This document shows, piece after piece, positions 9,425-52,202 of a stretch of 64,000 nt of DNA. The DNA is from a virus (lineage: Duplodnaviria > Caudoviricetes), in the IMG/VR virus record IMGVR_UViG_3300021400_000049, positions 1-64,000 of that record. One strand, 5' to 3'. Every line of letters starts with the position of its first letter. The stretch's first letter is position 1. The notes under the pieces were generated by a model. That model searched no databases and was not told where the DNA came from. It saw only the letters and a list, made by a program, of their open reading frames with translations. The translations under genes were made by a program, and so were the position numbers.

Positions 9425-9561
9425 TTTACACTATAATTTAATCATGTTATAGTGTTATTACAGACAAGATATTACTTGTTCTGTTATGAAATCTTCTTTC
9501 ATATAGTGTGTGTTCGTTTACAGAAATAGCGGGAACTTTTGTTCTCGCTATTTTCTTTTTT
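9425..9561 (+). ncRNA. sRNA unit 1 (promoter, hairpins, terminator); antisense to a phage leader
   Basis: TTTACA-N17-TATAGT (9425-9453); no ORF; terminator ATAGCGGGAAC/GTTCTCGCTAT plus T tract; 9501-9511 is the exact complement of 51370-51380. Confidence 0.7.
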
Positions 9562-9563
9562 GC

Positions 9564-9783
9564 TTTACATTTAATTTTACCTATGATATATTGATTAAGT
9601 CAGCTCACACCATATGCGTAAGCAGATGGTTATAGAAAGAAGAAGAAAGACCAACGCTTCGGCATTGAGACGAAATTCTCTTTCTGAGCTGATATGAGTC
9701 AAATCATTGGTTAGCTCCTTTGTTTTTGACGAAAGATAAGTTCCTGTGTAGAGTAATCTATGCATGGAACTTTTTCTTTTTTA
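9564..9783 (+). ncRNA. sRNA unit 2: structured RNA with anti-SD loop
   Basis: TTTACA-N17-TATATT; TCAGCTCA/TGAGCTGA stem, GTAA and TTCG tetraloops; GTCAAA/TTTGAC stem presenting TCATTGGTTAGCTCCTTTG; terminator about 9738-9783. Confidence 0.7.
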
Positions 9784-9885
9784 TTGACACACATATATCA
9801 ATATGTTATAGTATGTTTAGTCTTTAAGACTTGATACACATTTCAATTCATTGGTCGCTCCTTTGATTTAGATGTGTTATAATGT
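9784..9885 (+). ncRNA. sRNA unit 3 with anti-SD loop
   Basis: TTGACA-N17-TATAGT; ACACAT/ATGTGT stem presenting TCATTGGTCGCTCCTTTG. Confidence 0.65.
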
Positions 9886-9889
9886 GAAT

Positions 9890-10000
9890 AAGTCAGTCGG
9901 TGGGGCTATACATCAACTGATGATGTTAACCTAATATCGACTGACTATGATAAGTCCTTACGAAGATGATAGCCCATCTTAGTATAGGACTTTTCTTTTT
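9890..10000 (+). ncRNA. Kissing-loop/pseudoknot RNA ending in a terminator-like hairpin
   Basis: TGTTATAAT extended -10 at 9875-9883; AGTCAGTCG/CGACTGACT stem; GGGCTAT (9903-9909) complements ATAGCCC (9969-9975). Confidence 0.55.
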
Positions 10001-10015
10001 GTAAGGAGAGATTAT

Positions 10016-10198
10016 ATGCGAGAAATTGATAAAACATTTCTTATGTTATTTAAAAACATAAGAATCGTGGAAAATGAGCAGGGTGGATATACTGCTTACT
10101 CAACAAATGGAGTAAATGCTATTCCAAATAAAGAGATTGTAGGACTTGTAAAAAAATATCAAGAACTACTTATAAATGAGTTAATTAAAGAAAATTGA
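10016..10198 (+). CDS. Hypothetical protein
   Basis: 60 aa ORF with AAGGAG RBS. Confidence 0.5.
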   Translation: MREIDKTFLMLFKNIRIVENEQGGYTAYSTNGVNAIPNKEIVGLVKKYQELLINELIKEN

Positions 10199-10202
10199 TA
10201 TA

Positions 10203-11174
10203 ATGGAGGTTAATATTATGGGGATATTTAGGGTAGAAAAATCAGAAAATTTTACAATAATGAGCAATTATCATTTTAGAGAAAAGAAAATGTCTTTAAA
10301 AGCAAAAGGTCTTTTATCTTGGATGCTCTCACTTCCAGATAACTGGGATTACTCAATAAAAGGTATGTGCAAATGTCATAAAGATGGAGAAGATGCTATA
10401 ACTTCCGCATTAAAAGAATTACAGAGTTTTGGATATCTTGAAGTAGTAAAGTTAATGCCTGGAACAATCATAGAAAACTCAGATGGTAGTACATACACAT
10501 TAAATCGTATAGATTACGACTATGTGATACATGAAAAACCTATAAATACTCAAGACACTGATTTTCAGTGTACTGAAAATCAAGCTACTGAAAATCAAGC
10601 TACTGAAAACCCCTACCAAATAAATACTAAAAAAACAAATACTAAAAAAACAAATACTAACCAAAAAAGCACCGGCTCCGGTGCTTCTTCTAAAAATCAT
10701 TCTCAGGTCTACAAGAAAAGAGAAGTTCTAAATGATGATTTACAGAGTGGAAAAGATATAGATAAACAAAAGAGTGACCAGAGAAAATCTCCAAAAGACA
10801 AATTCAAAGATGAGTGTTTAGATATTATAGATAAAGAGTATTCAGACGAGACCAAAGATTTACTTATAGAATACTTTGATTTTGTTAGTTCTGTTCCAGA
10901 AGATAAAGACAATCTATGTAAGCGTGTTAAGACTGTAAAAGCATGGAGACATAAGTTAGACAGACTAAATGAGCTTGTAAAAGATGGCTATGACCCGATA
11001 GCTATTATTCAGCAAAGTTTGGATAAGAAGCAGTATGTATTTTATCCACTACAGTCTGTACAAAAGAAATCTAAAGGAAAAGAAACGCTCAGTGATAAAC
11101 TTGTAGGTACAGATTTAGAGGATGCAAAAAGAAGATACCAAGAAGCAATAGATAATGGGGAGGAGTTTTTCTAA
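10203..11174 (+). CDS. Phage replication initiator (wHTH replisome organiser)
   Basis: FTIMSN...SLKAKGLLSWMLSLPDNW...ALKELQSFGYL; internal iteron-like repeats; followed by loader ATPase. Confidence 0.8.
   Translation: MEVNIMGIFRVEKSENFTIMSNYHFREKKMSLKAKGLLSWMLSLPDNWDYSIKGMCKCHKDGEDAITSALKELQSFGYLEVVKLMPGTIIENSDGSTYTLNRIDYDYVIHEKPINTQDTDFQCTENQATENQATENPYQINTKKTNTKKTNTNQKSTGSGASSKNHSQVYKKREVLNDDLQSGKDIDKQKSDQRKSPKDKFKDECLDIIDKEYSDETKDLLIEYFDFVSSVPEDKDNLCKRVKTVKAWRHKLDRLNELVKDGYDPIAIIQQSLDKKQYVFYPLQSVQKKSKGKETLSDKLVGTDLEDAKRRYQEAIDNGEEFF
10562..10660 (+). repeat. Iteron-like 15-bp tandem repeats (candidate origin)
   Basis: TACTGAAAATCAAGC x2.6 and AAATACTAAAAAAAC x2.6 inside the initiator gene. 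Confidence 0.6.
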
Positions 11175-11857
11175 TGAATGAGACAATGAATGAAGCAAAT
11201 TGGCATGTATGGAATAAAGCTCAACTAGATAGTTTAGATTTCACAGAAAAATTTATACTAAAGAATAGTTATCTTCCAAGATACCAATATATAGAAGATA
11301 ATTTAGTACCTGATATAGATACTACACAATTTCTAAGGCTGAGAGAAATAAGAGGTAATATGCGTAACTTTTTAAATAGCAGTACAAATAATCTCGTATT
11401 GTGTAGTGAACATCTAGGTAATGGTAAAACATCATGGGCAGTAAAATTGATGCTTACATATATAGAGTTACAAAAGGGTAAATTAGACTATGTAGATGAG
11501 AATGAGGTGAATGTAGATAATTTTGATTATTGTGTATTTTGTCAGTCAGTACCTTTTCTTGTAGAGATGAAACAGTTCGGTAACAATAAGAAAAGCTATG
11601 AAATGTATCAAAGATTATGCAAAACAAATTTAGCAGTCATTGATGATTTAGGCGCAGTACCTATGTCACAGTATGATTACAACATTATATATGCAATTCT
11701 TGAAAGAAGGCTGTTCTCAGGATTACCTACTATTATCACAACAAACTTTGTATCAAAAGATTTAGCAGAGAAGGAGTTAGGTGTAAGACTAGCAGATAGA
11801 ATATGGAATAATTCAGAAATAATAGAATTTAAAAGTAAGGGGTTTAGGGGAGTATGA
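11174..11857 (+). CDS. DnaC/IstB-like helicase loader ATPase
   Basis: HLGNGKTS Walker A, VIDDLG, PTIITTN, RLADRI. Confidence 0.85.
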   Translation: MNETMNEANWHVWNKAQLDSLDFTEKFILKNSYLPRYQYIEDNLVPDIDTTQFLRLREIRGNMRNFLNSSTNNLVLCSEHLGNGKTSWAVKLMLTYIELQKGKLDYVDENEVNVDNFDYCVFCQSVPFLVEMKQFGNNKKSYEMYQRLCKTNLAVIDDLGAVPMSQYDYNIIYAILERRLFSGLPTIITTNFVSKDLAEKELGVRLADRIWNNSEIIEFKSKGFRGV

Positions 11858-13203
11858 GTGCAATACATTTGCAAGTATTGACACGAATAGTTGATGGTAA
11901 AGACTATTCGTTTATAGAGGATAATAACCTCACAAGTGATATGTTTGATGCATACTCTGATGTGTTCGATTTTATAGTAGACCACTATAATCAATACAAA
12001 GTTATTCCTGAAGACACGACGGTTCAACAGAAGTTTCCAGACATTGAGTTTGTTGAGGTAAATGAAAGTGACGATTATTTATTAGATGAGTTACGGAGTG
12101 AGAATATCACCAGTAAACTACAAAATATATTCAGACACGCTAATGAGGTTTCAACAAAAGACGGAGCTATAGCCACATTAGAGTATCTTAAAAATGCAAT
12201 AGCTCATGTTGAGTTTGACAATAGTATAGCTTCCACAGAGATTATAAGCTCATTTAATGATAGACTTCAACATACTACAGAGGTATCATTAAACAAAGCT
12301 GATTGGTTTATACCTACAGGTTTTGATGAGCTAGATGCAGATATAAATGGTTTTCTGAGAGGTGATGAGCTTGTAGTTTTATTTGCTCGTACTAATCAAG
12401 GTAAATCATGGATTTCTGAGAAGATTGCTACATATATGGCAGAAATAGGGTTCAGAGTAGGTTACTTCTCTCCTGAGATGGGTGAACTTGATATAGGATA
12501 TAGATTTGATACTTTACATGGTCACATCTCAAACAATGCTATGAGATTGGGCAGAGAAGATGATAAGTTTAGTCTTGAATCTTATAAAGAGTATGGAGAT
12601 ACATTGAGTGCTATATCCGGTAAGTTGTTTGTTACAAGACCTAAGACATTCAATAGAAAAGTAACTGTATCAAAGTTAAGACAGTGGATAAAGTCTGATA
12701 AATTAGACGCACTCTTTATAGATGGTATTACATATCTTACTGATGAGAGATTTAAGAGAGGTGACAGTAAGACAATCTCATTGACCAATATCTCAGAAGA
12801 TTTGATGGAACTATCAGCAGAACTGAAACTTCCAATAATAGTTGTAGTGCAAGCTAACAGAGGTGGTGTAGTAGAAAAGAATAGTTTAGACACTCCAGAG
12901 CTAGAAAATATCAGAGATAGTGATGGTATAGCACAGAATGCCAGTATTGTGTATGCCATACGACAAGTGAAAACAGGTAGTGGTGAGACATTTCTTATCT
13001 TTGACAATAAGAAGATGAGAGGTGGAGAAGTAGGTAAATCCTATAAATATAAATGGGATATTAACTATGGTAAGTTTGTTACTGTGACAGATAATGAAAT
13101 ACAACTAAATCAAGATACAGAAGAAGCTCCAGTAAGAGAAAAGAAAGAACCTACTGCAGGTAAACGTGCTAGACGTAGATTAGAGGCAGAAGATGATTAT
13201 TGA
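11854..13203 (+). CDS. dnaB: Replicative DnaB-family helicase
   Basis: IPTGFDELD, ARTNQGKS, FIDGITY, VVQANR, SDGIAQNA. Confidence 0.9.
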   Translation: MSAIHLQVLTRIVDGKDYSFIEDNNLTSDMFDAYSDVFDFIVDHYNQYKVIPEDTTVQQKFPDIEFVEVNESDDYLLDELRSENITSKLQNIFRHANEVSTKDGAIATLEYLKNAIAHVEFDNSIASTEIISSFNDRLQHTTEVSLNKADWFIPTGFDELDADINGFLRGDELVVLFARTNQGKSWISEKIATYMAEIGFRVGYFSPEMGELDIGYRFDTLHGHISNNAMRLGREDDKFSLESYKEYGDTLSAISGKLFVTRPKTFNRKVTVSKLRQWIKSDKLDALFIDGITYLTDERFKRGDSKTISLTNISEDLMELSAELKLPIIVVVQANRGGVVEKNSLDTPELENIRDSDGIAQNASIVYAIRQVKTGSGETFLIFDNKKMRGGEVGKSYKYKWDINYGKFVTVTDNEIQLNQDTEEAPVREKKEPTAGKRARRRLEAEDDY

Positions 13204-14140
13204 TAATACAGAATACTTAATGGACTCAATAGATATAATCAATCTGTTAAAAGTCGATTTAGCGCAACATAACATTGATTATCTGAAAGATATAAAAGAT
13301 GGTCCAAAGAATATACAGATTACTTGTCCTTATCATGCTAATGGTCAAGAGCATAAACCATCAGCAGGTATAAGAAAGTCAGATGGAGTATTTCATTGTT
13401 TTAGTTGTTGTGAAACTCACACTCTACCCGAAGTAATATCATACTGCTTCGGGTATGATGTGAGTAGTTATGGTAAAAGATGGTTAGATACTCATATACA
13501 AGATAGAGTCTACACAAATGGCATAGCCAGATATAAAGAGAGACAGAAAGAAGTAGTAACAAATAACTTTGTATCGGAAGAAGAACTTGATAGCTATAGA
13601 TGGACACATCCATATTGGGCAGAAAGAGGTATAGTAAATGAGAGAATCATTGAATTGTTCGATTTGGGATATGATAAGAAAACTCAATGCATCACATTTC
13701 CAGTTAGAGATAGACAAGGAAACTGTGAATTTGTTGCAAAGCGTTCGGTCAATACAAAGTTCTTCCAATACCCACAAGGAGTTTCAAAGCCATTGTATGG
13801 ACTCTATGAGCTATGCTATTTGGGCTTACAAGATGAAGAAATAATTGTATGTGAGTCAATGATAGATTGTATTCTATTATGGCAATCAGACCATTATGCA
13901 GTAGCATTGAATGGTCTAGGTAATGAAAGACAATTCAAACAATTAAGAGAATTACCATGTAAAAATCTGATATTAGCTACAGATAATGATAAAGCTGGCA
14001 GAGATGCAAGACAGAGGATAAGAAGTAAAGTAACTAATAAATGGATTTCAGAAATAGCATTTCCTAAAGGAATAAAAGATATAGGGGAATGTTCTAAAGA
14101 GCAGATAGATAATATTTTAGATTGGAGGAAATGGTTATGA
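13193..14140 (+). CDS. dnaG: DNA primase (CHC2 zinc finger plus TOPRIM)
   Basis: CPYH...FHCFSC; CESMIDC; ATDNDKAG. Confidence 0.9.
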   Translation: MIIDNTEYLMDSIDIINLLKVDLAQHNIDYLKDIKDGPKNIQITCPYHANGQEHKPSAGIRKSDGVFHCFSCCETHTLPEVISYCFGYDVSSYGKRWLDTHIQDRVYTNGIARYKERQKEVVTNNFVSEEELDSYRWTHPYWAERGIVNERIIELFDLGYDKKTQCITFPVRDRQGNCEFVAKRSVNTKFFQYPQGVSKPLYGLYELCYLGLQDEEIIVCESMIDCILLWQSDHYAVALNGLGNERQFKQLRELPCKNLILATDNDKAGRDARQRIRSKVTNKWISEIAFPKGIKDIGECSKEQIDNILDWRKWL

Positions 14141-14772
14141 ATGAAGAACGATTTTTCAGCATTATAGTGCCCGCTCATAATGCAGGGAAAACATTGGACA
14201 AGTGTCTAACGTCAATCAAGAATCAAAAGTTTACCAATTATGAATTGATAGTGGTGTGTGATTCTTGTGATGATAACACGGAAGAAATCGCTAGAAAGTA
14301 CACAAACAAAGTAGCAAAAGTAAATTATCATAGTGATGGTTCAGCAAGAAATGTCGGATTAGATATTGCTAAAGGTAGATGGGTGATGTTCATGGATGCA
14401 GATGATTGGTATTTACATGAATATTGCTTTAAAATTTTAGCAGACTGCTTGGGTAAACATAATGAGGATGTACTTGTCTACTCAATAATATGGAAACATA
14501 TAGGTTATGTTACTGCGAGAAGTAAGATGGGTACATTATATCCTCATTGTACTAATAAATGCTGGAAGAGAAGTTTTATAGGTAATACAAGATTTCCAGA
14601 TAAGTATGTAGCTAATGATGCAGGATTTCACGAATTGATGATGGCAAAGAATCCTGTAATCTATGAGTATGATACACCGATATATTACTATGATTATCTG
14701 AATGGACATAGTAAGTCAGATGAGATAGGTAGAACTGTCGAGAATACAAAAAAGTATTGGAGTACACATTGA
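14137..14772 (+). CDS. Glycosyltransferase family 2
   Basis: FSIIVPAHN, ARNVGLD, FMDADD. Confidence 0.85.
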   Translation: MNEERFFSIIVPAHNAGKTLDKCLTSIKNQKFTNYELIVVCDSCDDNTEEIARKYTNKVAKVNYHSDGSARNVGLDIAKGRWVMFMDADDWYLHEYCFKILADCLGKHNEDVLVYSIIWKHIGYVTARSKMGTLYPHCTNKCWKRSFIGNTRFPDKYVANDAGFHELMMAKNPVIYEYDTPIYYYDYLNGHSKSDEIGRTVENTKKYWSTH

Positions 14773-15395
14773 TGAGATTTAGCATAATAATTCCTGCTTA
14801 CAATTCAGCTAAATATATCGTAAAGGCATTAGAAAGCGTTAAAGCCCAGTCTTTTACAGATTATGAGTTGATTGTAGTTTGTGACTCATGTAAGGATAAT
14901 ACTGCTGAGATAGCTATGAGTTACGGTGCGAAAGTTTATATTGGTAATTTTCATAATGATGGATTATCCAGAAGCAAAGGATTAGATGTAGCTCAAGGTG
15001 AGTATGTTTTATTTATGGACGATGATGATTGGTGGCTACATGAGTATGTATTAGAGCAGTTAAATGAGGAGTTAACAAGATTAAAGGATGCTGATGTACT
15101 AGCATTTTCTTTTATATTTAAAGGTATAGGCTACGCATCACCAACGAAAAATCAAGGTAAGTTATGGGTAGCTGTGTGGAATAAATGTTGGAAACGTGAG
15201 TGTATAGGTAGCACAAGATTTCCTAAAATACATTCATGCAGTGATAGATACTTCCATGATGCTATGATGGAAAAGAAATTGAAAATTTACACATGGGATA
15301 TGCCTATGTATTATTACAACTATCTTAGAGAAGGTAGTATTTCTCAGAAAGACGGGAGAAAGGTGAGTGAATTGAAAAAATGTCTAAATATCTAA
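14772..15395 (+). CDS. Glycosyltransferase family 2 (paralog of previous)
   Basis: FSIIIPAYN, SRSKGLD, FMDDDD. Confidence 0.85.
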   Translation: MRFSIIIPAYNSAKYIVKALESVKAQSFTDYELIVVCDSCKDNTAEIAMSYGAKVYIGNFHNDGLSRSKGLDVAQGEYVLFMDDDDWWLHEYVLEQLNEELTRLKDADVLAFSFIFKGIGYASPTKNQGKLWVAVWNKCWKRECIGSTRFPKIHSCSDRYFHDAMMEKKLKIYTWDMPMYYYNYLREGSISQKDGRKVSELKKCLNI

Positions 15396-16042
15396 TTCAC
15401 GCTTGCGCAAAACGAAAGTGGTATGTAGATGAATTTTTAGTACCATCCATGCTTAAACAAGGTATAGAACGAGAAAATATATTAGTCTATAATGATAGCT
15501 CTAAAGAAGGCTGCCTTAAATCGTTTTTATCATCATATGATAATATTGCATCTGTAGTTGGTGGTATATGGCATTTACAAGATGATGTAATAATAAGCTC
15601 AAACTTTAAGGAGATAACAGAGACATATGATAAAGGTATAGTATGTGGATTCTGTAGTTTTTATAGCGAAGATGTTCCTTTTGGTATAAGACCTATCAGC
15701 GATATTTGGTATTCTTTTCCATGTATACGAATACCAAATATGGTATTTAAGAATTTTGTTAATTGGGTAAAATCTCCAGAAATACAGAATAAATATAGAG
15801 TATATATTGAACAGAATAAATTTGTGGATATGCTATTTAGAATATTTATAATACAGACTTATCCTGATAAGTTGGTACATAATCTGTGCCCTAACATAGT
15901 TGATAATGTTGACTATCTGTTAGGTGGCTCAGTGATAAATTATATACGGGATAAAGAGCCTTTATCATTATATTTTAGTGAGCAAAATTTAATAGAGGAA
16001 CTTAAACATTCCATAGATAATTCAGTTTACAGACAGAAATAA
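15380..16042 (+). CDS. GT-A-fold glycosyltransferase-like protein
   Basis: IWHLQDDVII DxD-like motif; adjacent to two GT2 genes. Confidence 0.55.
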   Translation: MSKYLIHACAKRKWYVDEFLVPSMLKQGIERENILVYNDSSKEGCLKSFLSSYDNIASVVGGIWHLQDDVIISSNFKEITETYDKGIVCGFCSFYSEDVPFGIRPISDIWYSFPCIRIPNMVFKNFVNWVKSPEIQNKYRVYIEQNKFVDMLFRIFIIQTYPDKLVHNLCPNIVDNVDYLLGGSVINYIRDKEPLSLYFSEQNLIEELKHSIDNSVYRQK

Positions 16043-16102
16043 ATATGTTATAGTATGTTTGTAGTCAACAAAACACGTTTAAAACGAAAGGAAACGAAAG
16101 AC

Positions 16103-17523: not shown

Positions 17524-17641
17524 TTTAATGCCCGTAGAAGTTTGAGGACTGTCTATGAAAGCTCGTAAATAATGAGAAAGGCATACCCCCAAGTCAACTG
17601 CATTTTAGCCAATGCAGTCTCTTTCACAACAAAAGTCGGGT

Positions 17642-17735
17642 AGCACAGTAACTCAGTTGGCTAGAGGAAGTTATGAGTCTTTTGGTAAGCGTTTCAACTC
17701 ATAGTGTGTCATGGGTTCGAGTCCCATCTGTGCTA
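17642..17735 (+). tRNA. Atypical tRNA-like RNA with enlarged anticodon arm (Lys-UUU-like reading possible)
   Basis: Acceptor AGCACAG/CTGTGCT, D arm ACTCAGTTGGCTAGAG, T arm ATGGG-TTCGAGT-CCCAT; 94 nt; no encoded CCA. Confidence 0.6.
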
Positions 17736-18025
17736 TTAGTTGTTCATGGTCAGAGCAACTAATCTAGTAGTATTATTTTTCATGGTATGATTAACGCTAC
17801 AAACAACTTATTTATGTCTACTTTGCTCTATTACATATCAGATAGAGCGGTAACCGTAAACTACATCTTGTGGTTAAGATGTTTTTGGATACACAAATGC
17901 AAAACACATTGGTCTAAATCGTTTTGTTGTTCAAGTACAACTCCTGACATAAATTGATTAGCTAAGTTGTAGGTGTCGAACTAAACCGCGACATGGTTTA
18001 TAAGCTAATACTAAAGGAGAATATT

Positions 18026-31186: not shown

Positions 31187-31696
31187 ATGAATGTAGGTTA
31201 TAAGGATATTAACACGGTAGATGCCGCAAGGATGTTGAAAGTAGATAAATCATCAATAGTATATTGGTGTACTAACAATTACATCAATTATACAAATGTT
31301 AGTGACGGCATACATAAGAAAAGATACTTAATTTCTGAGGAAGAAATAGATTATATTAAGAGTCTTATCAAGGAGCATGGCAAAAGAAACTGGCGTAAGT
31401 TTTACGACAAAGATTGGAATAAGAAGGAGAAGAAACCAATGAACGTCATTACATCAGATGAAGCCATGTTTATTGAAGAAGTTAGGGAGAAAGAAGAAAA
31501 AGAGAATAAGCCAGCTACTAATAATAAGGTAGATATAGATAGTGTAGCAATAACTATTGGTTATATACAGGACATCAAAGAGCGACTAAAAGACTTAGAG
31601 GCAGAGAAGGCACAGTTGCTTAACGAATACTCTCAGCTTAAACAGGAAGTAATTAGCGCAATATCATTGGACAATGATTTAGAAAGTAAGGAATGA
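31187..31696 (+). CDS. HTH plus coiled-coil protein (putative regulator)
   Basis: AAAGGAG RBS; TVDAARMLKVDKSSIVYWC HTH. Confidence 0.6.
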   Translation: MNVGYKDINTVDAARMLKVDKSSIVYWCTNNYINYTNVSDGIHKKRYLISEEEIDYIKSLIKEHGKRNWRKFYDKDWNKKEKKPMNVITSDEAMFIEEVREKEEKENKPATNNKVDIDSVAITIGYIQDIKERLKDLEAEKAQLLNEYSQLKQEVISAISLDNDLESKE

Positions 31697-31697
31697 T

Positions 31698-35251: not shown

Positions 35252-35252
35252 T

Positions 35253-35939: not shown

Positions 35940-35954
35940 AAGGAGAATTAAGAA

Positions 35955-40028: not shown

Positions 40029-40124
40029 TGGAAACTATAAATAAAGTATTTTATATTGTAATTCTATTTTGCCTAATATGTTTTTTAGTATTCGGTGATA
40101 GAGATAACTGAGAGGAGATACCAT

Positions 40125-40409: not shown

Positions 40410-40523
40410 ATGTGGTCGTAAGCTCAAATCTGAGCAGTCGAGAATATTAGGCATGGGACCTACTTGTTTCAGAAAGTGGCAAAATGAACAAAATACTAAG
40501 CCACTGATATAGAGGTGTGATAT

Positions 40524-40832: not shown

Positions 40833-40854
40833 TCCTCTACATATTAAATGTGAA

Positions 40855-40888
40855 AAATCGACTAGAGAAATCTGGTCGATTTTTTTTA
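40855..40888 (+). terminator. Intrinsic terminator
   Basis: AAAATCGACTAGA/TCTGGTCGATTTT plus T tract. Confidence 0.75.
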
Positions 40889-40963
40889 TTCCTGTTGATG
40901 TTTATTTATAGGTATATTACCTTATACTTGTAAACGAAAACATAGTTTTTGAAAGGAGAAATT

Positions 40964-43900
40964 ATGCAGGTATTATTTGACGAAAGGGATTATGAACCAT
41001 TAAAAGAAGGAGAGACTTACGAAGGCAAGTTTGTAATTATTACACCTGAGTTCTTCAAGCCAGAGTTTAGAAATGCAAAATATCAGTTGTTTCATGCAGA
41101 AGCAGGATTTGGATGTGATCCTAGTAAGATAGGTAATGCAGTGTTTGGTAAAGATTGTGAGGAGACTTACAGACAGGAGAGATACAATATTCTCGGTGTA
41201 GCTAAGGAGTCCGCAATTCGTGAGTGGGAAAGAACATACCACATGAGTAGAGAGGTTTTCTACAGAAAGGAGAATGATTGATGGAAGAATTTACAACAAC
41301 ATTTTGGCAAGATTTCACAATAGCTGACGCCTTCGGTGCGTCAGCTATCAAAGACACCTTTAAGAGAGCGTTTGAAGAATGGAAGTCAGACTACAGATAC
41401 CTTACTGATTTAGTAATGGTAGTAAATCATAAGTGCTGGCAGCATTATGAGGAAGGCAATACAGAGATTAGCCAGATTTATTCAGATTTATATTATAAGG
41501 CTGATGCTTATGCCTGCGAGAACTTAAAGGGTGAAGAGTTGAGTTACTATTTTAGGGTAACAGATTGAAAGGGAAATATTATGAAATCTGAAATTAAGTG
41601 GAGAGATAATCTTAAAAGTATAGGTACTAATATTCCTAGGGTTGTTCCTAATGAAATCTACATGGCTATGAGTTCTATCGAATTTTATACAAAGACAATC
41701 AAGGCATTAGAAAGAGTGGGATGGAAATACTCGGGACGAGATGGAATGATTACTGGTATACATAACGAAAGGGCTATACAGATAGATATTGTGGAACAAT
41801 ATAATGACCATATGTACTTAGTAAAGTTCTGGAAAGACGGCAGTGTACATCTATATTTTAGAGATGAATACCTTAAAAACAGATATGGAAGGAGAGTATT
41901 GATATGAGTAAACCATATAGCAGAGATTATGAATCGGAACTATTAGATTTAGTCAGAGAGAACGGAATAACAGATGAGGACTTAGTGTCCTCATTCCTGT
42001 GTTATTTCAGTTCAGATGATACCTGTGCTTGTCTTGAAGATGTGTGCAGAACCTATGATATAGAGTATGAGGAAGAATAACTTCCTGTTGATAGGATAGC
42101 TGAAATATGCTATCCTATTTTTGTAAACAAAAACACACAAATGTTTGAAAGGAGAATATTATGGCAGTAAGGATTATGAAGAGGTGTTTCTGCTGTGGCA
42201 GAGAATCATCATTGGAGATTACTGATGAGGTAAATAAGAGGTATGAGATGTATCTCAATGGAGTAGGATATATACAAGATATTCCACTACCAGCAGACCA
42301 GAGAGAATTTTTAAAGACAGGTATGTGTCTCAGTTGTCAGGAGTTAATCTTTGCAGATCCTGATGAAGAATAAATTCCTATTGATAAGGTAGCACCTTAG
42401 TGCTACCTTATTGTTGTAAACAAAAACACATTATGAAAGAGAGGTACCAAATGAAACGAGTTATTTATTTACCAGATGAGCTTAACGAGAATAAGCATAT
42501 CCTCAAAGAAGTCTATGAGGGACATGGTGTATACAGAAGATACACACCCTCAGGATATCCAGTACATCAAGAGTGGGCAATAGTAAGAGAAAGTGATGGC
42601 TTCACTATTGTTACAGAGTCCTATAATAGTCTTGACCGTGTAGATATGCTGGATGCTATTGATAACTACAAAGAAACAGGTAAATATGGTTTTACCTGCT
42701 TACAGACACACAAAGGTAAAGAGCATGGCTACTACAATGTACATAGAGGAGGTAATTTAAAGCTATGAGTTTTTGTGATTTCCATACAATGCAGACAAGG
42801 AGCGGTAAAGTATTCACCCCACTTTCTACAAATGATGTGGTAGATGTAATCAGAGATGAAATGGGTGATGAGATAGCTGATTACCTCGATGAGTGTTTTT
42901 CAGATACTGCCTTAGAACAAGATACTGCCTATACATTATTACAGGATGAGTTTGCAAGTTACGAGCAGGAGAACGAGAACTGGCATAACTTTGTAGATGA
43001 ACTGTCAGAAGAAATAGAGGCAGTTAGAAGGAAGATAGAGGATAACAAATTAACAAAAGCCAAAATATCCATAGAGCTATATAAAATATATGAAAAGATG
43101 AGAAAGGAACTTTAATATGGACGAATTACAACTTATGGTACAGGCATTAGCCGGTACAATCGAAGATAATACGGCAGAGCTTAGAAAGATGAAGTCAGCA
43201 GGTAAACAGGATACAAAGATGTATATCCATAAGTTAGGAGAGATTTCAGCTTATGAGGATGTACTTAATATGGTCATATGGAGAATCAATCAGCTTTCTA
43301 ATAAGTGAGGTGAATGATATGTGGTACTTAGTATTATTTATCCTCTTTTGTATATTCTTTCTTTAATAAGTTCCTGTTGAACTGGTATCTCCTACATGAT
43401 ATCCTATTCTTGTAAAGAAAACAAGAACACATATCTTGAAAGGAGATACCAAAATGACTAAAGAGGAAATTAAGCAGTACGAGAACAAGGAACCCATAGG
43501 TATATACGCACTCAGTAATTGGGGTGGCATAGAGATTTTAGATATTCTCTATGGTATTGATGATTATGTGGTAGTAAGATACTATGGTAAGTCCTATCAT
43601 AGAGTAAAGATTCACTATGGTGTAAACCATAGTTCATTCAGAATAGGCAGATTGACAATACGCCTTGATGAGTGTATGAGAGTGTGAGGTAAAACCATGA
43701 AAGAGTATATTATAGTAGGGGATACAAAGTCTTTTAAGGATTGTCTTATCACTGTAGTGAGGGGTGATAGAAATGCCGCAGAGAAAGTGTTGGAGCGTAT
43801 GCTATATGCTCCAACAGAAAATGACTATAAACTTATGGAAGGTCATAAGAATCTGAGAATCAAAGAGGTTAAAGAAAAAGACCAGTGGTGGAATGATCCG

Positions 43901-44170
43901 TTCTTAGCAAATTGAGAGGAGAAAGAGGATGCGAAAAATTAGTAAGAGTAAGTGGAAGAAGTGGTTATTGATGCATAGAGATTCAATACTTTAAAGGAGA
44001 AAGAAGATGAGTCAGTTAGGATATGAATGTTGTATATGCCATAAGATATTTACAGATTGGGGTAATGACCCATGGCCAGTAGTGAAAGATGATGATGCAA
44101 GGTGTTGTGACGACTGTAATAGTTCAGTGGTACTGCCTGCAAGATTAGCACAATTATTAAATAAGGAGGA
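40964..44170 (+). other. Early-region small ORFs, part 1 (40964-41281, 41278-41568, 41581-41907, 41904-42080, 42161-42373, 42451-42768, 42765-43115, 43117-43308, 43454-43687, 43697-43915)
   Basis: Short acidic hypothetical proteins with strong RBSs, arranged in promoter-headed cassettes. Confidence 0.65.
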
Positions 44171-44176
44171 TAATAA

Positions 44177-44437
44177 ATGAAGGATTTTGTAAATGATTTT
44201 GAGGTAAGAAAGGGAAAGTTAGATACTCTTGTAGCCAATGCTGGTTACAAGAGTTTTAGAGAGTTTGCCAAAGATACAGGAGTAACTGCCGCAAATCTAT
44301 ATTCAAATCTTCATGGTACATGGCATATGTCAATGAAAAGAATGTTTAAGGTAGCAAACACACTGAATGTGCCTATACTTCAGGTAATAGAGATTTTCTA
44401 TCCAGATGAGCTGGCAGAGAATCAGGCATTGTTCTAA
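44177..44437 (+). CDS. XRE/Cro-family HTH regulator
   Basis: SFREFAKDTGVTAANLYS...MKRMFKVANTLNVPI. Confidence 0.75.
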   Translation: MKDFVNDFEVRKGKLDTLVANAGYKSFREFAKDTGVTAANLYSNLHGTWHMSMKRMFKVANTLNVPILQVIEIFYPDELAENQALF

Positions 44438-44519
44438 AATGTTCCAGTTGTATTCAGCTACAGGATATATTACCTTATACTTGTAAACAAAAACAGTTCT
44501 ATTTGAAAGGAGAACCAAT

Positions 44520-47500
44520 ATGTTAGTAACATCAATAGAAATCAGAGAGTGGTTAGATAAACAGATTGAGGCCTATCACACATCCTTAGAGAAGTTGATA
44601 GTCAATGATGATGGAGATTACCTTAGTAACATCGGTGTTCAGGACAGAGGTATTCATCTCTGCTCAGATGCAGTAAGGTTTATTGCAGACAGACTTGGTA
44701 TTGACCTCTGTGTAACATTAAGAAAGAGGGATACGGAGAATCCGTATGAGATTTTCATTCTGTATAAGGGTGAGAAGTTCTTCGGAATTGAAACTGAGGA
44801 AGAGTATCAGGAGAAAGGGGCAGTGGTATAAACCACTGCTCTTTAAAGAGGATAATGCTATGATGAAGTTTGTAACATCCTGTATAGATGAAAAGACAGG
44901 ATATGAGATGGTTTTATCAGAAGTCAGCTATAATGTAGCTATGGATTGGCTACAAAGGCAGTGTGAGAAGTATTTCAAGGAGATATTTAGAACCGAGAAT
45001 AATGGTACAGATGATGTGTGGATATATGTAGGTACACCTAAGAAAGATGTAAATCCTATGACAGGAGAGGTAGATGTGTGGTATACAAATCAAGTTATAT
45101 TCCACTATGACGAGAGCAGAGGATATTTGATGCAGGAGTAAGATATGAATTTTGAGGATTTTTTACAGAACCTATACGGTATTTCAAGTATGTCCAATGA
45201 TTATGAAGAAAGGGTTGTAGTTAATACCCAAGAAGATGATTGGGTAGTAGACACTGCAATAGTTACAGATAGGAGCTGGACATATGAGACCGCAGTAATG
45301 AGTCCACATTTCAGAAATAATAAATGGATAATAGTCGGTAAAGCAGATACCGAAGAGGATGCAGTTAAAGTGCATGAACAATGGGTTGATATGATGAGAA
45401 ATGATCCTAGGGCATTATGGGATATATATGAGGAGAAAATATTTATACACGATTGATTATAAGCTACTGGAACTTAATATTCCAGTAGCTTTTATTTTAC
45501 CCATATGCTACCTTATATTTGTAAACAAGAACACATAGTTACGAAAGGAGACCACTATGATACAGATTGAGGTTAAGTCAGAGAATGTATTCGGAGATGT
45601 GAGATTTTCTTATTGCCAGGTAGAAGATATTCCAACGCACTTCGCAAGATTAAAGTTTGAAGGCTGGGATAATATACTATCAACCCATCTTGTAGATGAG
45701 TTTGGCAGACTACTTAATGAAGATGGACAGTTAGTGTGAAAGGAGACCATTATGAAAGTTTACAGAGATAAGGCAACAGGTAAGAAGTTATATCCCGTAT
45801 GCTCATGGGAAAGAAATCAGCATAAGCTCTATAATGCCATAGATAGGGCACATAATGCAGTTACCGATTTGTATGAAGACAAGTCGGCTACAATAGAGCA
45901 GATTGATAAGGCAGAAGCGTGGGTTCAAGAAGTAGAGAGGTTGACCAGTATATTCGATAGTCATGTAGCACCTAATGGTGTAGTTTATGCACTATGGGAA
46001 GATGGTCAGAAAATAAAGGACATCATATACGGTTATGATTGTAGGCATGACCAGCTTGAGGCAGAAAGGAGAATGTGATATGTGCCAATATCCATGTAGA
46101 AACTGTGTTTATTATAAAGAGTGCGGTGAAAGCACAAGAACAATGCCATGTAATGGCAGAATGACGAAGAGTCAGCAGAAAGGGCTAAAAGCAAGCCTGA
46201 TTGTAATGGATGAGTTTCCTTTAAAGACAAGAGAGGAACTAATAAGAGAAGGAGAAAGAGAACAGGCAAGAAGAGCCTTCTATGAGGATTGAAAGGAGAC
46301 CATTATGTGTAGAAACTGCGAGAACTGCCAATATTGTAAAGAGGACTTTGAATATGATGATTTTGGTAATACCTTCGATTACTGCAAGTGTGTACTCACC
46401 AATGAGCTGATTGATTGTTCAGAAGCAGAGCATTGTAAGGATTATACAGAGTAGTCCATAAAGTGTTAGGAATCGACTCCTAACACTTTTATTTTATTTT
46501 GATATAAAGTATCAACGAGCAGATAAAAACGTCAGGAAAGAGCAGGAAATGAGTTGAAATATTCCTGTTGTCAGGTATATACCTGTATGCTATCCTATAT
46601 TTGTAAACAAGAACAGAGAGTAAGTTTCATGGTGCCAAGTATATCTTCGCTATGGATGCTGAAATCGCCATATATGAAAGGAGAGAATATGATACTGAAT
46701 GATGGATTTTACCCGTCAAAAGAGAGCGGGGTTGTACTAGAAAGATTTGAAGATATGTGGACAAAACACTCGATGTCCGATAAGTATGCAAGGGATATTG
46801 TGACTACCAGCAATAGTAATATTCAGACCTACTCTGATGCCTTTATGTCAGAGATGGCAGGGGATGAGATATTCTTTGCAGACTGGATAAGATATAATGA
46901 GGGATTACTACCTTACATCAAGAAAGCCGCTGATACAGTGCGTTGGCTACATGAGAATGGATATACAGAGTACAAAGTCAATATGCAGTCCGGGATAATA
47001 AAATAAAGCGCCTGGATTAGATTTTTATCTTATAGTTGATAAATTGCACACATTGAAAGGAGAAAGTTAAAAATGGCAACAATGATTAAATATGGAACAA
47101 AAGCAGGAGAAGACCTCATACATGATATGAATTACAGACACCCTAAAGGAAATACCCTTTATGATGTGTACGGTAAAGTTTCTTCAAAGAAGGCGAAAAG
47201 TTGGGAGAAAATCAGAGATGATTGCAACTACCTCAAAGGTAGACGCCTTCATATTATAGGAGCATCAAGTTATGGGTATTCCTGCATATATGCTTATCCT
47301 ATATATGACCATAGAGATGAGAGCATTATATCCATGATGATTAGAAAGGAAACAAAGGCGAATACCTATGAGATGGAAGTGCCTATAGATGAATATGATA
47401 AGAGAATTATACACAAAGGAGAATAAGGAAGATGTTGATATATGATGTAAACCGATATTCAGAGGATGTATGTAAGTTACCTGATACCATAGTATTACCT

Positions 47501-49523
47501 GATGATTTAGAAAAGGACGATGTTGATGCCACAGTCAATGCCATAATAGAGTTTGTAGAGAAGATGTATGGCAGAAAACCGAGCGCATTTGGTTGTAGAG
47601 CAAATGGCCAGATTATAAGATACAGAGCATGAATCAAATAAGTTCCAGTTGAAAAGGTAGCACCTGAGTGCTACCTTTTTCTTGTAAACAAAAACATTTC
47701 TTGAAAGAGAGGACCTATTATGAAGTACATTACCGAAAACATTACAGAGATTGAAAAGCTGGCCGTATCTATGATGCTCTTTGCTACTTGCGGTGAAGAT
47801 GAAGATACAATGGCAAATGCCGAAGTATCAAAGACTTCCCCTAACACATTCCACATTGAATATGATGTAGCAAATCCTTTTAATGGAATATCCCTTACAG
47901 TAGAGATTCACCGAGAGAGCTATGCTAACGGACAATCGTCAGTATTCCACTACAACGTCATATCTAGTGCCTATGGTGATACCGGAGAGTTCACACTGAC
48001 AATCGAATAAGTTCCTGTTGATAGGATAGCACCTCTGTGCTATCCTATACTTGTAAATAAGAACACATATTGAAAGGAGAACCATTATGTTGATGATGTT
48101 AGAAGAAGTATTCCCTGGGCAGAATAGAATGAATGAATATCCTATGGGAGAAGAGCAAGAGTTCCAGAGCATGAAAGAGTTTATATCCTGGAACATAGAG
48201 CAGATTGACGAAATCCTGAAAGATGCTCCAGAGGAGCAGATAACAAAAGATAAGCTGACCAACGGTGAGTATTCAGTCTATGAAAAAGATGGCGTGGTGT
48301 ATGTGAGAGTGGAGGTGATAGCATGATTACAAGAGCAAGATTGGAAATGGTGAATGCCAATAACAAGAAAGTGTTTGGCAGAAGTATGTGGGGCTATTGT
48401 GAATTATCCGATTTAATAGTGAAGTTTTTCAGAATAATGCCTGATTATGTGGACCAAAGTAAATGTAACCTCAGGGTTTATGATGTGAGTCATTGATATT
48501 CCAGTTGATAAGGTACTACATATGTAGTACCTTATTCTTGTAAAGAAGAACACATACATTGAAAGGAGAACCAATTATGAGAGACATTGATATGAAATGG
48601 AGTACCGCAAGAGCTACATACGACCTTATAGTAGATGGAGAGTGGTATGCAGAGGGCAATTATGAACAGATGGATGATATGGCAAGAGCCATGAGATTAG
48701 CTGATATTGAAGAGGAAGAAGCCAGATGTTCTCAGCCTAGTGATGATTACTACGGTGATGCAGATGATTGGGATGAGTGCTGACTTATCCCATATAGAAA
48801 GGAAACCATTATGGACAAGATAGTTTTGAAACTGAAAGGCAAACTAATAAAGGCCGATGTGATAGATTTTTCAGACAGATTAAAGTACGGCGAGATGTTA
48901 ACCTATGAAGATGCAGATGATGATTGGGAGATATTCTCAGTAAAAGGAACAAAATTCTATGTAGCCTATCAGCAGTGTTCTGCCTACGATAGGGTGTGAA
49001 AGGAGACCGATATGAGTGAAAACATGGTTCTTATAATGATTGATGAGTGCGGAGATGAGCGGGAATATGACCGTTATACTGTAGGAGATGATTTAGATGA
49101 GGATTATCTCGAAATGTGGCAAGAAATGAAAATTTCCAAAGCCAGAGAAGATTATCCAGAAGCCCGTAGATTTTACTTTGAAGATAGGCGCAATTGGAAT
49201 AGCATGATAAATGCCATGATTAGAGATGATGAGGGATATGACCCTTGGGAAGATGAAGAGGTGCCAGTATGAATATCATAAAGCAGAATAAGAAAAGGCA
49301 GTTAGTAGAAGAATATGGACCATACATGAATAAGAGATATGCCATATATGACACAATGGGCATAATGGAAGTATGGTTCTCAGACAAACAAAAAGCGTTG
49401 TCCCATTGGGAGAAATATAAAAACGCGGAGACTTGGGCAGAAAAGAGAGAGCGGTATAAACAAGAATTATTAGCCACAATAGAAAGAGGTGGTCCAGAAT
49501 TAGATGAACTACCATTTATCTGA
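44520..49523 (+). other. Early-region small ORFs, part 2 (44520-44831, 44860-45141, 45145-45456, 45557-45739, 45752-46078, 46080-46292, 46305-46454, 46689-47006, 47073-47426, 47432-47632, 47720-48010, 48087-48326, 48577-48783, 48811-48999, 49012-49272, 49269-49523)
   Basis: Short hypothetical ORFs, most with AAAGGAG-(N)ACCA-ATG RBS. Confidence 0.65.
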
Positions 49524-49569
49524 GCATATATCAGCTCATTAAAAAGTTGGCGGGCGAAAAGACAACCTA

Positions 49570-49930
49570 ATCCATTCATAAATCTATCTATAGAACTAGG
49601 CAAATATAAACCATAGATTATAATACAAAAACAAAGCGGAACATAGAGGCCATGTAGAGATACATGACCTTTTAGTGTATACCATATACGACTCTGTAAA
49701 ATCAGAAAAGAGGGCGGTAAAAGAGTCCTGTTCATATACTCCATTTATTATACCAAATACTAATACCATATAAACCATATATAGAAACCATATAAATACC
49801 ATTCTTTAGCCATTTATGCCATTCGTGACATGACTTTATTTAGTCTGTATCTAGGGCCATTCAGTAGCCATCTAGACTCCTTTCACCTTCTCGCCATTTA
49901 GCCCACAATATAGCCAGCCATTCACCCGAC
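49570..49930. repeat. Non-coding tract of short (A/G)CCAT repeats
   Basis: Repeated ACCATA/GCCATT units, dense at 49740-49925. Confidence 0.5.
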
Positions 49931-50260
49931 ATTATCCCCGGCGCCTGGAAACGAAAATTGATTCAAATCAAGAAATTTTAGTCCACTAAAGTGCACCTTG
50001 CACAAACGGCACCAGGCCACTAGCTTTGCCCCTTGTGGCTAAATTTTGGCGGGCGTCACTATTAGGGAAAAGTGCCGAAAAATACGGGGTAGGTATCCGA
50101 TTTTTAAAAGCCCGCCAAAACCTATTCGTCAAATTGCACAAAAACCACTAGAGGCCTCTGACCGAACTCCGATAAGACGTATTCCTGTTGTAAGGTTATA
50201 TAGGCTAGATTACCATAAAATAAAAAACACACACATAAATATGAAAGAGAGGATACCAAT

Positions 50261-50611
50261 ATGACAAGAAATGCATTAGTATTAGAGTCTGCCAAAGAAT
50301 ATGCAAGAAAGGGTGCATGGAAGACCGCAGACAGAACATTACATGAAGTTATGGTAGATCCATATAACTTTGATGATGAAGAACAGGAGATGGAAGCAAG
50401 AGAGTTACAGGTAGAGATAACTTCTCATGTAGCCCTCACTTATGAGCAACTCATGGATTTAGCCCTTAAGCATTATAACAAGGGCGGGGATAGTACATAT
50501 GAATGTTGGGAAGAAAGAGATTACCAAGAACATGGACCTATGAGTAAGTATGAAGCACTCCGTATGTTTGCTATGGATTATGATATAGAAAGGGATAGAA
50601 TGGGTTGGTAA
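50261..50611 (+). CDS. Hypothetical early protein
   Basis: Behind TTCCTG promoter, GAGAGG RBS, followed by terminator 50628-50660. Confidence 0.65.
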   Translation: MTRNALVLESAKEYARKGAWKTADRTLHEVMVDPYNFDDEEQEMEARELQVEITSHVALTYEQLMDLALKHYNKGGDSTYECWEERDYQEHGPMSKYEALRMFAMDYDIERDRMGW

Positions 50612-51008
50612 TATACAATCCATTATTTAGCTCCGCCCATTATCTGAGCGGAGCTTTTCTTTTGCCCATTTATTACCTCTAGAGGTATATATTAATATAG
50701 AAGAAACGGAACCTAAAATATAAAAATCATTGACACCGCCTTCTTTTTAGATGTATTATAACCATGCAGAGAATAGTGAGGCGAGAGTGAAAACCATGAC
50801 CCCTAAAAGAGATTGAGATTGGGGTATGAAGGAGTAGCTAGGCCAAGCGAAAAACGGTTAAGCGAAAGAAACATGGGCTTACTGAAAAGAAACGATGGCT
50901 TACTGAGCAGAAACTGGCAGAAACGAACATTCAAATACAGGTGTCATTACTAGGCAGAGATATGGAATTTACATACCTCTGGTTTTGTGCGTCTGGAATC
51001 CATTCTTT

Positions 51009-51112
51009 TAGGCCCATCAACTCTTTGCCCATATTCCCATAGAGGCCCATTGTCTATTAGGCCCATTCCTCTATAGGCCCTTTGCTGACGTAGGCCATTG
51101 AAGCCCCTGGCC
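51009..51112. repeat. AGGCCC(AT) repeat tract
   Basis: About six AGGCC(C) copies plus related GCCC units in about 100 nt. Confidence 0.55.
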
Positions 51113-51246
51113 ACACACAGGTGGTGTGGTGGTATGTGAGCTTCGCTCACAGAGGATCTGCTTGCACACAATGTAATAGAATAAAGTGTTATTGTTTACA
51201 ATTAAATAATAAACAATGTTGTTGTTTACATTTTTTAAAATTGTAC

Positions 51247-51275
51247 TTGTAAACAATAACAACTTATGATAATAT
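51247..51275 (+). promoter_or_regulatory. sigma70-type promoter with TTGTAAAC/GTTTACA boxes upstream
   Basis: TTGTAA-N17-TAATAT with TG extension; AT-rich UP-like region. Confidence 0.6.
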
Positions 51276-51398
51276 GATATTGAGCTTCAATAAAGCGTGA
51301 GCTTTGAAGCGTGTTCTATCTGTACTTTAACAAACATAGTTAGCTACTAACTATCATATGGAAACGTAAACACACTATATCGAAACGAGGTAACGAAA

Positions 51399-52016
51399 AT
51401 GGAAAAAACAACTATTCTCAGTAACTACAAACTCGCACAAGCTACTTTTGACAACACTAATAAGCGTGTTGCGATGACTGACAAGGAGCTTGCAACGCTT
51501 AGAGCGATATGCAAAACTAAGACTTTCGGTCTTGTATCGTTAATTGACGATATAGACAACATTGCAACGTTCAATGGCGATTATGATTGCAAGCTTGCTC
51601 AGAGCGGTAACGCAAAAGAGCACACACTCGTGTCTATATGGAGTCGTAACGCTATTAAACACGTTACTAAAAAGAGTGACTATAGAGACTTTGGTGTACG
51701 TTTTCACGTTGATAAGCTTGCTCAGCTTTACAAAAATAAAGACTTTGCAAAGCTGATAGAAAATAGCAACGTGCAAGTGTATTCTCACAGAGACGGTCTT
51801 GAAATAAGATTTACGTTTAAGTCACTTGCTGACTGTCTCAAGTTTGTTGCTGATATAGACAACGCAACAAAAGAGACTCAAAGCAAGACTCAGACTCAAA
51901 AAGAGACAAAGTCTCAGAGCAAAGCAAAAGAGCAAAGCAAGACTCAGAGCAAAGCAAAAGAGACAAAGTCTCAGAGTAAAAGCAAGACTCTAAAAGAGAC
52001 TCAGAAAAAAGCGTAA
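51399..52016 (+). CDS. Proline-free 205-aa protein with basic QSK/KET low-complexity tail (putative immediate-early regulator)
   Basis: GAGG RBS; ORF has no CC dinucleotide; function inferred only. Confidence 0.75.
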   Translation: MEKTTILSNYKLAQATFDNTNKRVAMTDKELATLRAICKTKTFGLVSLIDDIDNIATFNGDYDCKLAQSGNAKEHTLVSIWSRNAIKHVTKKSDYRDFGVRFHVDKLAQLYKNKDFAKLIENSNVQVYSHRDGLEIRFTFKSLADCLKFVADIDNATKETQSKTQTQKETKSQSKAKEQSKTQSKAKETKSQSKSKTLKETQKKA

Positions 52017-52088
52017 ATGCTCATGATAGCAACATTTATAGTAGTGATAATATTATTCTTACTCTTACTTGCTTTTATCTTTTGCTGA
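52017..52088 (+). CDS. 23-aa hydrophobic membrane peptide (not in ORF track)
   Basis: ATG abuts previous TAA; MLMIATFIVVIILFLLLLAFIFC. Confidence 0.5.
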   Translation: MLMIATFIVVIILFLLLLAFIFC

Positions 52089-52101
52089 TAGCTTAAACAT
52101 T

Positions 52102-52135
52102 AAAGCACTAGCATTTTTTGCTAGTGCTTTTTTGT
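52102..52135 (+). terminator. Intrinsic terminator
   Basis: AAAGCACTAGC/GCTAGTGCTTT plus T tract. Confidence 0.8.
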
Positions 52136-52202
52136 TTGCATTAAAGCGTTACATACCACCCAGCATCTTTGTTAGCATATGCTAACACGATTGCTGAGTG
52201 AG

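Follow-up and report, generated by a model that had tools for sequence, protein, structure and literature searches.

The stretch analysed here, below called the window, is 64,000 nucleotides long and comprises bases 1-64000 of the complete circular phage record IMGVR_UViG_3300021400_000049 (74.4 kb). At 51113-52155 it contains an island that is purged of the dinucleotide CC and, to a large extent, of GG. The island houses a small operon, the starter operon, while the same CC is fixed at one position in nearly all promoters of the early genes upstream. The genome is 36% GC, and nearly all of its genes lie on the plus strand. Their order runs from the replication genes at 10-40 kb through some 30 small early genes at 40-51 kb and the island to gene 52489, terS/terL and the virion genes. 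Its terminase relatives are Clostridia-type siphoviruses. Close relatives were drawn from IMG/VR, ENA and Logan metagenomes; G000 denotes the phage under study and the other G and L numbers related genomes or loci. The relatives' samples probably come from the rumen, and the host is probably Lachnospiraceae-like. An earlier note had joined several features of this DNA into one system: the starter operon is expressed first, its product switches on box-dependent early promoters, small RNAs then silence the starter and the early genes, and glycosyltransferases mark the progeny DNA at CC/GG. Features given below lie on the plus strand of the window unless stated otherwise.

The CC/GG-purged island

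The island is a feature of both strands. Counted on the plus strand, 51113-52155 contains no CC where 30.4 are expected from the local composition (P ~6e-14), and the next-longest CC gap in the 74-kb genome is 323 nt. GG is reduced to 15 occurrences against 36 expected, and six of the eight GG in the starter coding sequence (CDS) are forced by Gly or Trp. The edges are sharp and the flanks rich in both steps. Thus, the operon is CC-free as had been claimed, but with 15 GG it is not strictly CC/GG-free, and its label as "modification-free" is a putative one.

The operon begins with a sigma-A-like promoter (51247-51278) that has an extended -10 and no CC box. It is followed by the starter open reading frame (ORF) at 51399-52016, which encodes 205 aa without a single proline, by a 23-aa ORF for a hydrophobic peptide (52017-52088) that from its sequence is coupled to the starter stop, and by an intrinsic terminator (52102-52130) that closes the operon. 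A similar ORF of 18-27 aa follows the starter in most relatives. The promoter was described earlier as canonical and lacking TTCCWG; the box is indeed absent, but only 8-9 of 12 consensus bases match in G000, while the consensus is near-perfect in G006, G014 and L026. Other sigma-A-like promoters without a box are found at 9566, 9783 and 52432.

An AT-rich, proline-free gene might be thought to produce such a gap by chance or composition alone, and the starter protein does lack proline. However, the C content of the island is 17%, the probability given above is very small, and synonymous recoding yields about 5 CC and 16 GG per CDS where most homologs show 0-1 and 6-9. The CDSs of ten island homologs of the starter contain 0-1 CC and, in nine of them, 0-3 unforced GG, compared with the ~5 CC and ~10 unforced GG that phage codon usage predicts for each. 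The purging covers non-coding parts of the islands as well. A homolog with 43% identity that lies outside an island, P0020, has 10 CC and 39 GG, and therefore the protein does not impose the purging. The conservation across non-homologous genes refutes the compositional explanation, to which we give a negligible probability.

An island is retained at this position in more than 20 related loci, where its genes may be non-homologous and lie on either strand. Its size is 767-812 bp in L025 and L026, 976 bp in G003, 863 bp in G004 and 779 bp in G007. In G014 the island spans 1,600 bp with 0 CC and 0 GG against 78 expected, in L081 the island operon is inverted, and in G011 a 506-bp island carries no genes; the flanks hold 32-96 CC+GG per 500 bp. 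As islands with non-homologous, inverted or no genes are embedded in CC/GG-rich flanks, selection acts on the double-stranded CC:GG step and not on RNA or protein. A cause at the RNA level or on one strand is ruled out by the inverted operon of L081 and by the loss of both steps in G014 and G011. Purging is only partial in G008, G012, G013 and G016. The selection exerted by a reader of this step is strong enough to strip Pro, Gly and Trp from proteins.

Genome-wide, the palindromes GATC and CGCG are strongly avoided in G000 (at 0.13 and 0.23 of expected); AGCT is avoided by G011, and CTAG by G014, G016, G028 and G030.

General restriction-site avoidance is rejected as the cause of the island, as AGCT, TGCA, ACGT and TCGA are tolerated or enriched inside islands and every CC/GG context is removed. 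The same observation bears on a more specific explanation by host defence, in which a first-expressed anti-defence operon is purged of NGG-type protospacer-adjacent motifs (PAMs) or of CC-containing restriction or phosphorothioate motifs, and the other features are unrelated. Purging on both strands, the strong genome-wide avoidance of restriction sites, and the fast-evolving small genes with a membrane peptide, which resemble anti-defence cargo, agree with it. It is at odds with the loss of all CC/GG contexts next to tolerated four-base palindromes, and with the abrupt edges towards CC/GG-rich flanks, and we consider it improbable. Short first-expressed regions near a genome end that lack particular motifs are known from the first-step-transfer DNA of T5, the leading region of T7, and cases of restriction-site or PAM avoidance. 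In contrast to these, a whole dinucleotide is removed here from both strands, with sharp edges and a loss of Pro, Gly and Trp.

The position of the island supports another explanation, which is the main rival to the model favoured below. The island could be a genome-end element (a terminal repeat, or DNA that is pac-adjacent or enters first) which stays unmarked or exposed and has to avoid a nuclease or protein reading CC/GG. The resident genes would then inherit the CC/GG rule, and the early promoter cassettes would be ordinary strong promoters spread by cassette shuffling, with no need of an activator. In all cases the island lies directly upstream of gene 52489/terS, its borders are sharp and conserved, and it reaches well past the transcription unit, which is inverted in L081 and missing in G011. 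At the right border a perfect Firmicutes parS 16-mer is found in G003 (41218), G006 (2330), G007 (12718) and L023 (9703). On the other side, the phage terminase belongs to a family that we take to be usually tied to headful packaging. The promoters discussed in the next section also argue against this explanation, which we hold to be serious but rather unlikely.

The right border and a candidate packaging-site region extend over 52149-52410 (unstranded), with a conserved ACCACCC-type border, an 18-bp palindrome at 52170 and ACCGTG repeats before gene 52489 and terS; the packaging function is putative. The palindrome (52170-52187), related to parS, takes the place of the 16-mer in G000, L001 and L005. 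In G000 and G001 a 10-bp inverted repeat is common to the left (51120-51136) and right (52149-52160) borders. In the relatives the left edge is GG-rich and the right edge CC-rich, so that C-runs point outward on both strands. Modified flanks might be under-sequenced; starter-bearing contigs are indeed shorter, with a median of 1.8 kb against 4.2 kb for those bearing gene 52489 (p 0.011), but the comparison is confounded by cluster size. The 107-nt assembly end repeat is located away from the island, and a replication origin at the island is unlikely, as iteron-like repeats sit in the rep gene of G001 and G003.

The CC box of the early promoters and the starter protein

Eleven early promoter cassettes are confirmed between 40889 and 50231, starting at 40889, 42082, 42375, 43371, 44442, 45480 (a variant), 46562, 47643, 48012, 48499 and 50182. 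Each consists of the box, a TTG hexamer, 17 nt and TAYCCT, TACCTT or TACCAT, followed by an A/C-rich leader to the Shine-Dalgarno (SD) sequence that all share. Early-region promoters were gathered from 17 genomes and loci with a search pattern that ignored the box. CC is found 4-3 nt before the -35 hexamer, i.e. at about -39/-38, in 66 of 72 early promoter calls but in only two of 15 others (Fisher p 2e-9, which overstates the evidence, as these promoters are paralogs from related genomes and not independent). One of these two is the promoter of a small RNA, sRNA1, described below. The bases flanking the CC vary widely, and the CC persists in lineages whose neighbouring gene is only ~30% identical. 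The starter and island promoters have the same layout minus the CC.

Thus, the promoter class that was earlier defined as TTCCWG/TACCTT is real as a set of CC-containing cassettes, but the invariant core of its box is CC, not TTCCWG. CC within the -10 element was rejected as a general feature, being lineage-specific (35/72). As the core is CC, the step banned from the island and the mark of the promoters are the same dinucleotide, and this identity is in our reading of the sequences the best new evidence that island and cassettes form one system. The genome-end explanation leaves unexplained why this same CC should be the sole invariant promoter feature across diverged lineages, and why the unrelated sRNA1 promoter has retained it too, in 6/6 genomes. 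In its favour, the early promoters of T4 have an extra consensus and need no phage factor (PMC2988021).

The cassettes, about ten near-identical promoter-leader-ribosome-binding-site (RBS) units heading small genes of unknown function, resemble T4 early promoters and host-takeover modules of the SPO1 type, which are an example of repeated early promoter cassettes. They differ in the invariant CC across lineages and in a dedicated antisense RNA to the shared leader. The early region as a whole is enriched in CC (31 per kb vs 21 expected). The enrichment of ACCA in the RBS spacer of early genes noticed earlier is confirmed (11/33 vs 0/88 other genes), and is better regarded as part of this CC enrichment.

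Several further observations concern the cassettes. In five of them (42082, 42375, 47643, 48012 and 48499) the -35/-10 spacer and the -10 form a hairpin of -16 to -19 kcal/mol, while the other six fold weakly. The motif TTGTAAAC, a possible operator, occurs at the start site of most cassettes (40928-47682), over the starter -35 and inverted upstream of the starter; its coordinates in the window are 40928-47682, 51194, 51247 and 52464. The early region is inverted in G011, G013 and G016.

The starter protein is predicted to contain a double-wing fold like the C-terminal domain (CTD) of the T4 activator MotA (residues 20-157), followed by a disordered tail rich in Lys, Gln and Ser. The structure prediction of residues 1-157 has a mean predicted local distance difference test (pLDDT) of 83.8. 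The best fold match among 48,161 chains is T4 MotA (Z 5.5, root-mean-square deviation (rmsd) 4.1, 107 aligned). In a second structure comparison three MotA entries lead with Z 5.1-5.6 (next match 4.4), and in a viral structure library a MotA homolog ranks second (probability 0.90, TM 0.40, E 0.04). The MotA alignments, with rmsd 3.6-4.1, 101-107 aligned residues and 4-6% identity, thus agree in direction, but the scores are weak and all below the thresholds used for fold matches (Z 8 / E 0.001). No match to ORF 51399 was found in Pfam, PHROG or Foldseek-PDB, and an Atlas search gave only leads to DUF5655/DUF3788, below 0.9. An iterated hidden Markov model (HMM) joins the starter to those of G001, G003, G006, G007 and L023, while it finds no link to the starters of G004, G014, G028, L025, L081 and L146, for which a shared fold is suggested by eye only.

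The alignment spans MotA 103-211 only, and just ~20 residues precede the aligned domain in the starter; in the structure alignment the N-terminal activation domain that binds sigma region 4 (~95 aa) is not present. T4 MotA needs its N-terminal domain and AsiA, and the MotA box replaces the -35 (PMC6755090). Because only the C-terminal domain aligns, ORF 51399 is probably a double-wing DNA-binding protein and not a MotA. Of the MotA-like activator proposed earlier, it is thus the resemblance to the DNA-binding domain that stands, weakly, and the activation domain that is missing. The likeness to the MotA/AsiA system (PMC6755090, PMC2988021) consists of an early gene with a predicted, weakly MotA-CTD-like fold and a promoter class with a phage-specific upstream element. 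In the cassettes, however, the -35 is not replaced: a TTG hexamer is retained at 17 nt from the -10, and the two-base CC sits upstream beside it. No AsiA was identified here, although no search aimed at it was made and many of the small early ORFs are unannotated. That the starter acts at the CC box is a tentative proposal, a little short of even odds.

Small RNAs and glycosyltransferases

Four ORF-less promoter/hairpin units at 9421-10002 are confirmed; an Rfam covariance-model search gave no match for them at E up to 1. The first, sRNA1 (9421-9562), has a CC-box promoter (CC at 9421-9422), an antisense core (9488-9521) and a strong terminator, and is found behind a CC-box promoter in all 6/6 genomes covering the region. 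As pairing partners, its 34-nt core favours the genes that head cassettes, assigned by promoter alone, over all others in 5/5 genomes (p 3e-6 to 4e-4), and only 0-1 of 60 shuffles pair as well. The best island gene ranks 4, 2, 9, 13 and 4 of 86-132 genes in the five genomes. In a cross test the starter of its own genome is the best partner, or close to it, for each sRNA1, and one compensatory change in this pairing separates G000 and G001. With its own promoter and terminator, its conservation and an above-chance complementarity to translation-initiation regions, sRNA1 has the sequence properties of a trans-acting antisense RNA. We read it as antisense to the leader and SD that the early regulon, starter included, has in common, and think it fairly probable, from this complementarity, that it represses its targets. 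The earlier proposal that it silences the starter is consistent with its conserved complementarity to that gene; however, it fits the whole early regulon, and sRNA1 is itself under a CC-box promoter.

Silencing of ACCA-type RBSs by sRNA2 and the third unit, in contrast, is not borne out. The structured sRNA2 (9595-9785) with its anti-SD loop is found in only 2/6 genomes (G000 and G005), its pairing with early versus other genes gives p 0.05, and its best predicted target is ORF 31187 (-25.2 kcal/mol for the loop, vs ~-18 for the ACCA genes). Unit 3 (9812-9890) consists of short hairpins; its pairing gives p 0.01 in G000, but in the relatives the loop is not anti-SD. We find a role for these two RNAs in the system very improbable and have dropped it. 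The sRNA2 loop (9700-9732) matches perfectly, over 12 nt, the RBS of the HTH_17 gene at 31187-31696, a gene with a homolog also in G003, which has no sRNA2.

The remaining unit 4 (9888-10002), outside the earlier model, precedes the replication initiator gene and is an RNA of two hairpins with a covarying complementary pair of 6-7 nt (9903 / 9969). A segment of its first arm is complementary to the second loop in 6/6 genomes (G000, G001, G003, G004, G005 and G007), in four sequence versions. With a folding z of -7.4 and no Rfam match it is a candidate for a new pseudoknotted or kissing RNA or an attenuator. Elsewhere, 56659-56760 carries the GP20-a RNA motif (Rfam RF02991), ahead of the scaffold gene, and 17649-17736 a tRNA-Thr(GGT) whose variable region is long.

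The glycosyltransferase genes noticed earlier are also present. Three DNA glycosyltransferases of the TAGT family (21980, 22837 and 24204) and a 164-aa partner (23726), which matches the C-terminal half of ParB-like proteins, occupy 21980-25070, in the slot between polA and the sliding clamp. The TAGT genes score 69-118 bits against PF20691 (cut-off 27.5) and match phrog_842 at E 6e-58 to 1e-24. Two GT2 genes and a gene with a GT-A-like fold (15380) lie at 14137-16042; the GT2 pair is missing in G001 and G003, therefore it is not part of the core, and the GT2 genes were rejected as core writers. Next to the TAGT cluster, at 18026-21983, polA is split in two by a GIY-YIG gene and followed by a second one, while PolA of G001 is a single protein of 765 aa.

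The cluster resembles described TAGT / beta-glucosyl-HMC-alpha-glucosyltransferase systems (PF20691, phrog_842; bioRxiv 10.1101/2023.12.21.572611) in its three members above the Pfam cut-off, its ParB-like partner half and its place between replication genes. Unlike them, it comes with neither a C5-methylase nor a thymidylate-synthase homolog as the source of a hydroxymethyl base; the described systems use GpC (bioRxiv 10.1101/2023.12.21.572611). Every near-complete close relative carries a cassette of the DNA-modification type after polA. Among G011, G013, G016, G030 and G031 the slot swaps such cassettes (TAGT, GT-B-like, DpdA/YhhQ/Que-like). G011 has there a YhhQ/Vut_1 transporter (E 8e-43) together with a weak match to GT1; a further gene is read as DpdA-like from its motif only.

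As the island persists while the modification cassette changes, there may be no chemical mark at all. A protein (the starter, another phage protein or a host silencer) would then bind plain CC:GG DNA, from which the island escapes, and the CC box would be its operator, possibly for repression rather than activation. The predicted DNA-binding fold of the starter, with a basic tail and no activation domain, and the CC enrichment of the early region agree with this. However, a two-base operator carries too little information without a mark, and the CC is fixed although the starters of different clades have no detectable sequence similarity. We consider this explanation quite unlikely.

A possible CC/GG gate on early transcription

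We suggest, at a probability of roughly 0.35, that a mark or factor reading CC/GG gates the early promoters and that the CC-free starter escapes it and opens them, a step beyond the island, the fixed CC and the complementarity themselves. In the infected cell something would read double-stranded CC:GG, most likely a mark that the phage places on its own DNA. The starter operon, having no CC:GG, would be exempt and be transcribed from the incoming DNA by the host sigma-A polymerase. Its MotA-CTD-like protein would license the promoters with CC just upstream of the -35, those of the early cassettes and of sRNA1. The latter would then pair with the leader/SD of cassette and starter mRNAs and end the early pulse. 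Such a circuit would be a feed-forward loop with negative feedback.

Five close genomes cover all regions, and in these (G000, G001, G003, G004 and G007) the island, starter, CC-box cassettes, sRNA1 and TAGT cluster occur together, as the earlier note would predict; the co-occurrence breaks at the edges of the group, in G011, in G009 and in TAGT phages without an island. Three of the four links (starter fold, CC box and sRNA1) have some support, sRNA2 and unit 3 fall away, and the modification is the weakest step.

Besides the relatedness of the promoter copies, a number of findings speak against the proposed gate. G011, a complete genome without TAGT, has its gene-less island, and CC-box promoters were not detected in it or in G014 (nor in G013, G016, G030 and G031). 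In G009 CC-box promoters coexist with an unpurged starter-type operon, called by position and eye. G013, G016 and G030 have one TAGT gene and only weak depletion, and five unrelated phages (c5, jlb1, NTR1, MT835491 and HHTV-2) have the ParB-like partner and TAGT but no CC/GG gap. In G000, homologs of C5-methylase (PF00145) and thymidylate synthase (PF00303) are absent, with controls working. Throughout the genome GGCC, CCGG and GGNCC remain depleted, at 0.2-0.8 of expected, a pattern at odds with full protection. The fold scores of the starter stay below 8, and the activation domain of MotA is missing. Finally, in T4 the early promoters are active on fully modified DNA and need no activator (PMC2988021).

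In G031, deazaguanine-like genes were recognised by inspection, and there is no island. G000 yielded no base-hydroxylating enzyme, the PF12851 (TET) search having been made without a positive control. Wherever two or three TAGT genes occur (6/6 genomes), the island does too; across genomes, however, TAGT and island were not found to co-vary. Because of these mismatches, the missing methylase and synthase and the palindrome avoidance, the CC/GG mark is unproven and TAGT only a candidate writer. Of the marking by glycosyltransferases proposed earlier, the company of TAGT genes and island in the close clade remains, while the island of G011, the TAGT phages without one and the dispensable GT2 pair speak against it. 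We give even odds to a mark placed at CC/GG by the phage, and doubt more than believe that TAGT writes it.

Marks at motifs this short are known. In phage CAjan, DpdA places 7-deazaguanine at dinucleotide-scale motifs, GA and GGC (PMC7544227), so a phage mark can use 2-3 bases, and the TAGT slot of G011 encodes a YhhQ transporter and, judged by its motif, a DpdA-like protein. G000, on the other hand, has no DpdA/YhhQ-type genes, and no motif-free island is reported for CAjan. The MotA-CTD straddles glucosylated cytosine (PMC6755090), which would fit the starter as a reader of marked DNA. In its most specific form the dinucleotide would be an epigenetic gate: CC:GG is marked in the virion, the mark-free starter is read first, at -39/-38 the double-wing protein recognises the marked CC or overrides it, and the co-induced antisense RNA ends the pulse. 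This version is unlikely as a whole. The logic of the cascade has a precedent in T4, which also has DNA glycosyltransferases and shuts off early mRNAs, the activator's own included, at the SD, by RegB in T4 and by a predicted antisense RNA here. However, T4 has no motif-free starter island.

Our literature search found no paper on a dinucleotide that is purged from a whole operon on both strands and yet fixed at one promoter position of the same genome. Should the cascade prove wrong, the island still testifies to selection by some reader, strong enough to cost Pro, Gly and Trp. If the link holds, TAGT enzymes without a hydroxylase would gain a testable substrate, and motif-free islands would expose the target motifs of uncharacterised DNA-modifying enzymes from sequence alone. 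The pattern points to a two-letter CC/GG switch for early phage genes, undescribed so far, in which, under the same condition, a phage DNA mark would, beyond blocking nucleases, time gene expression.

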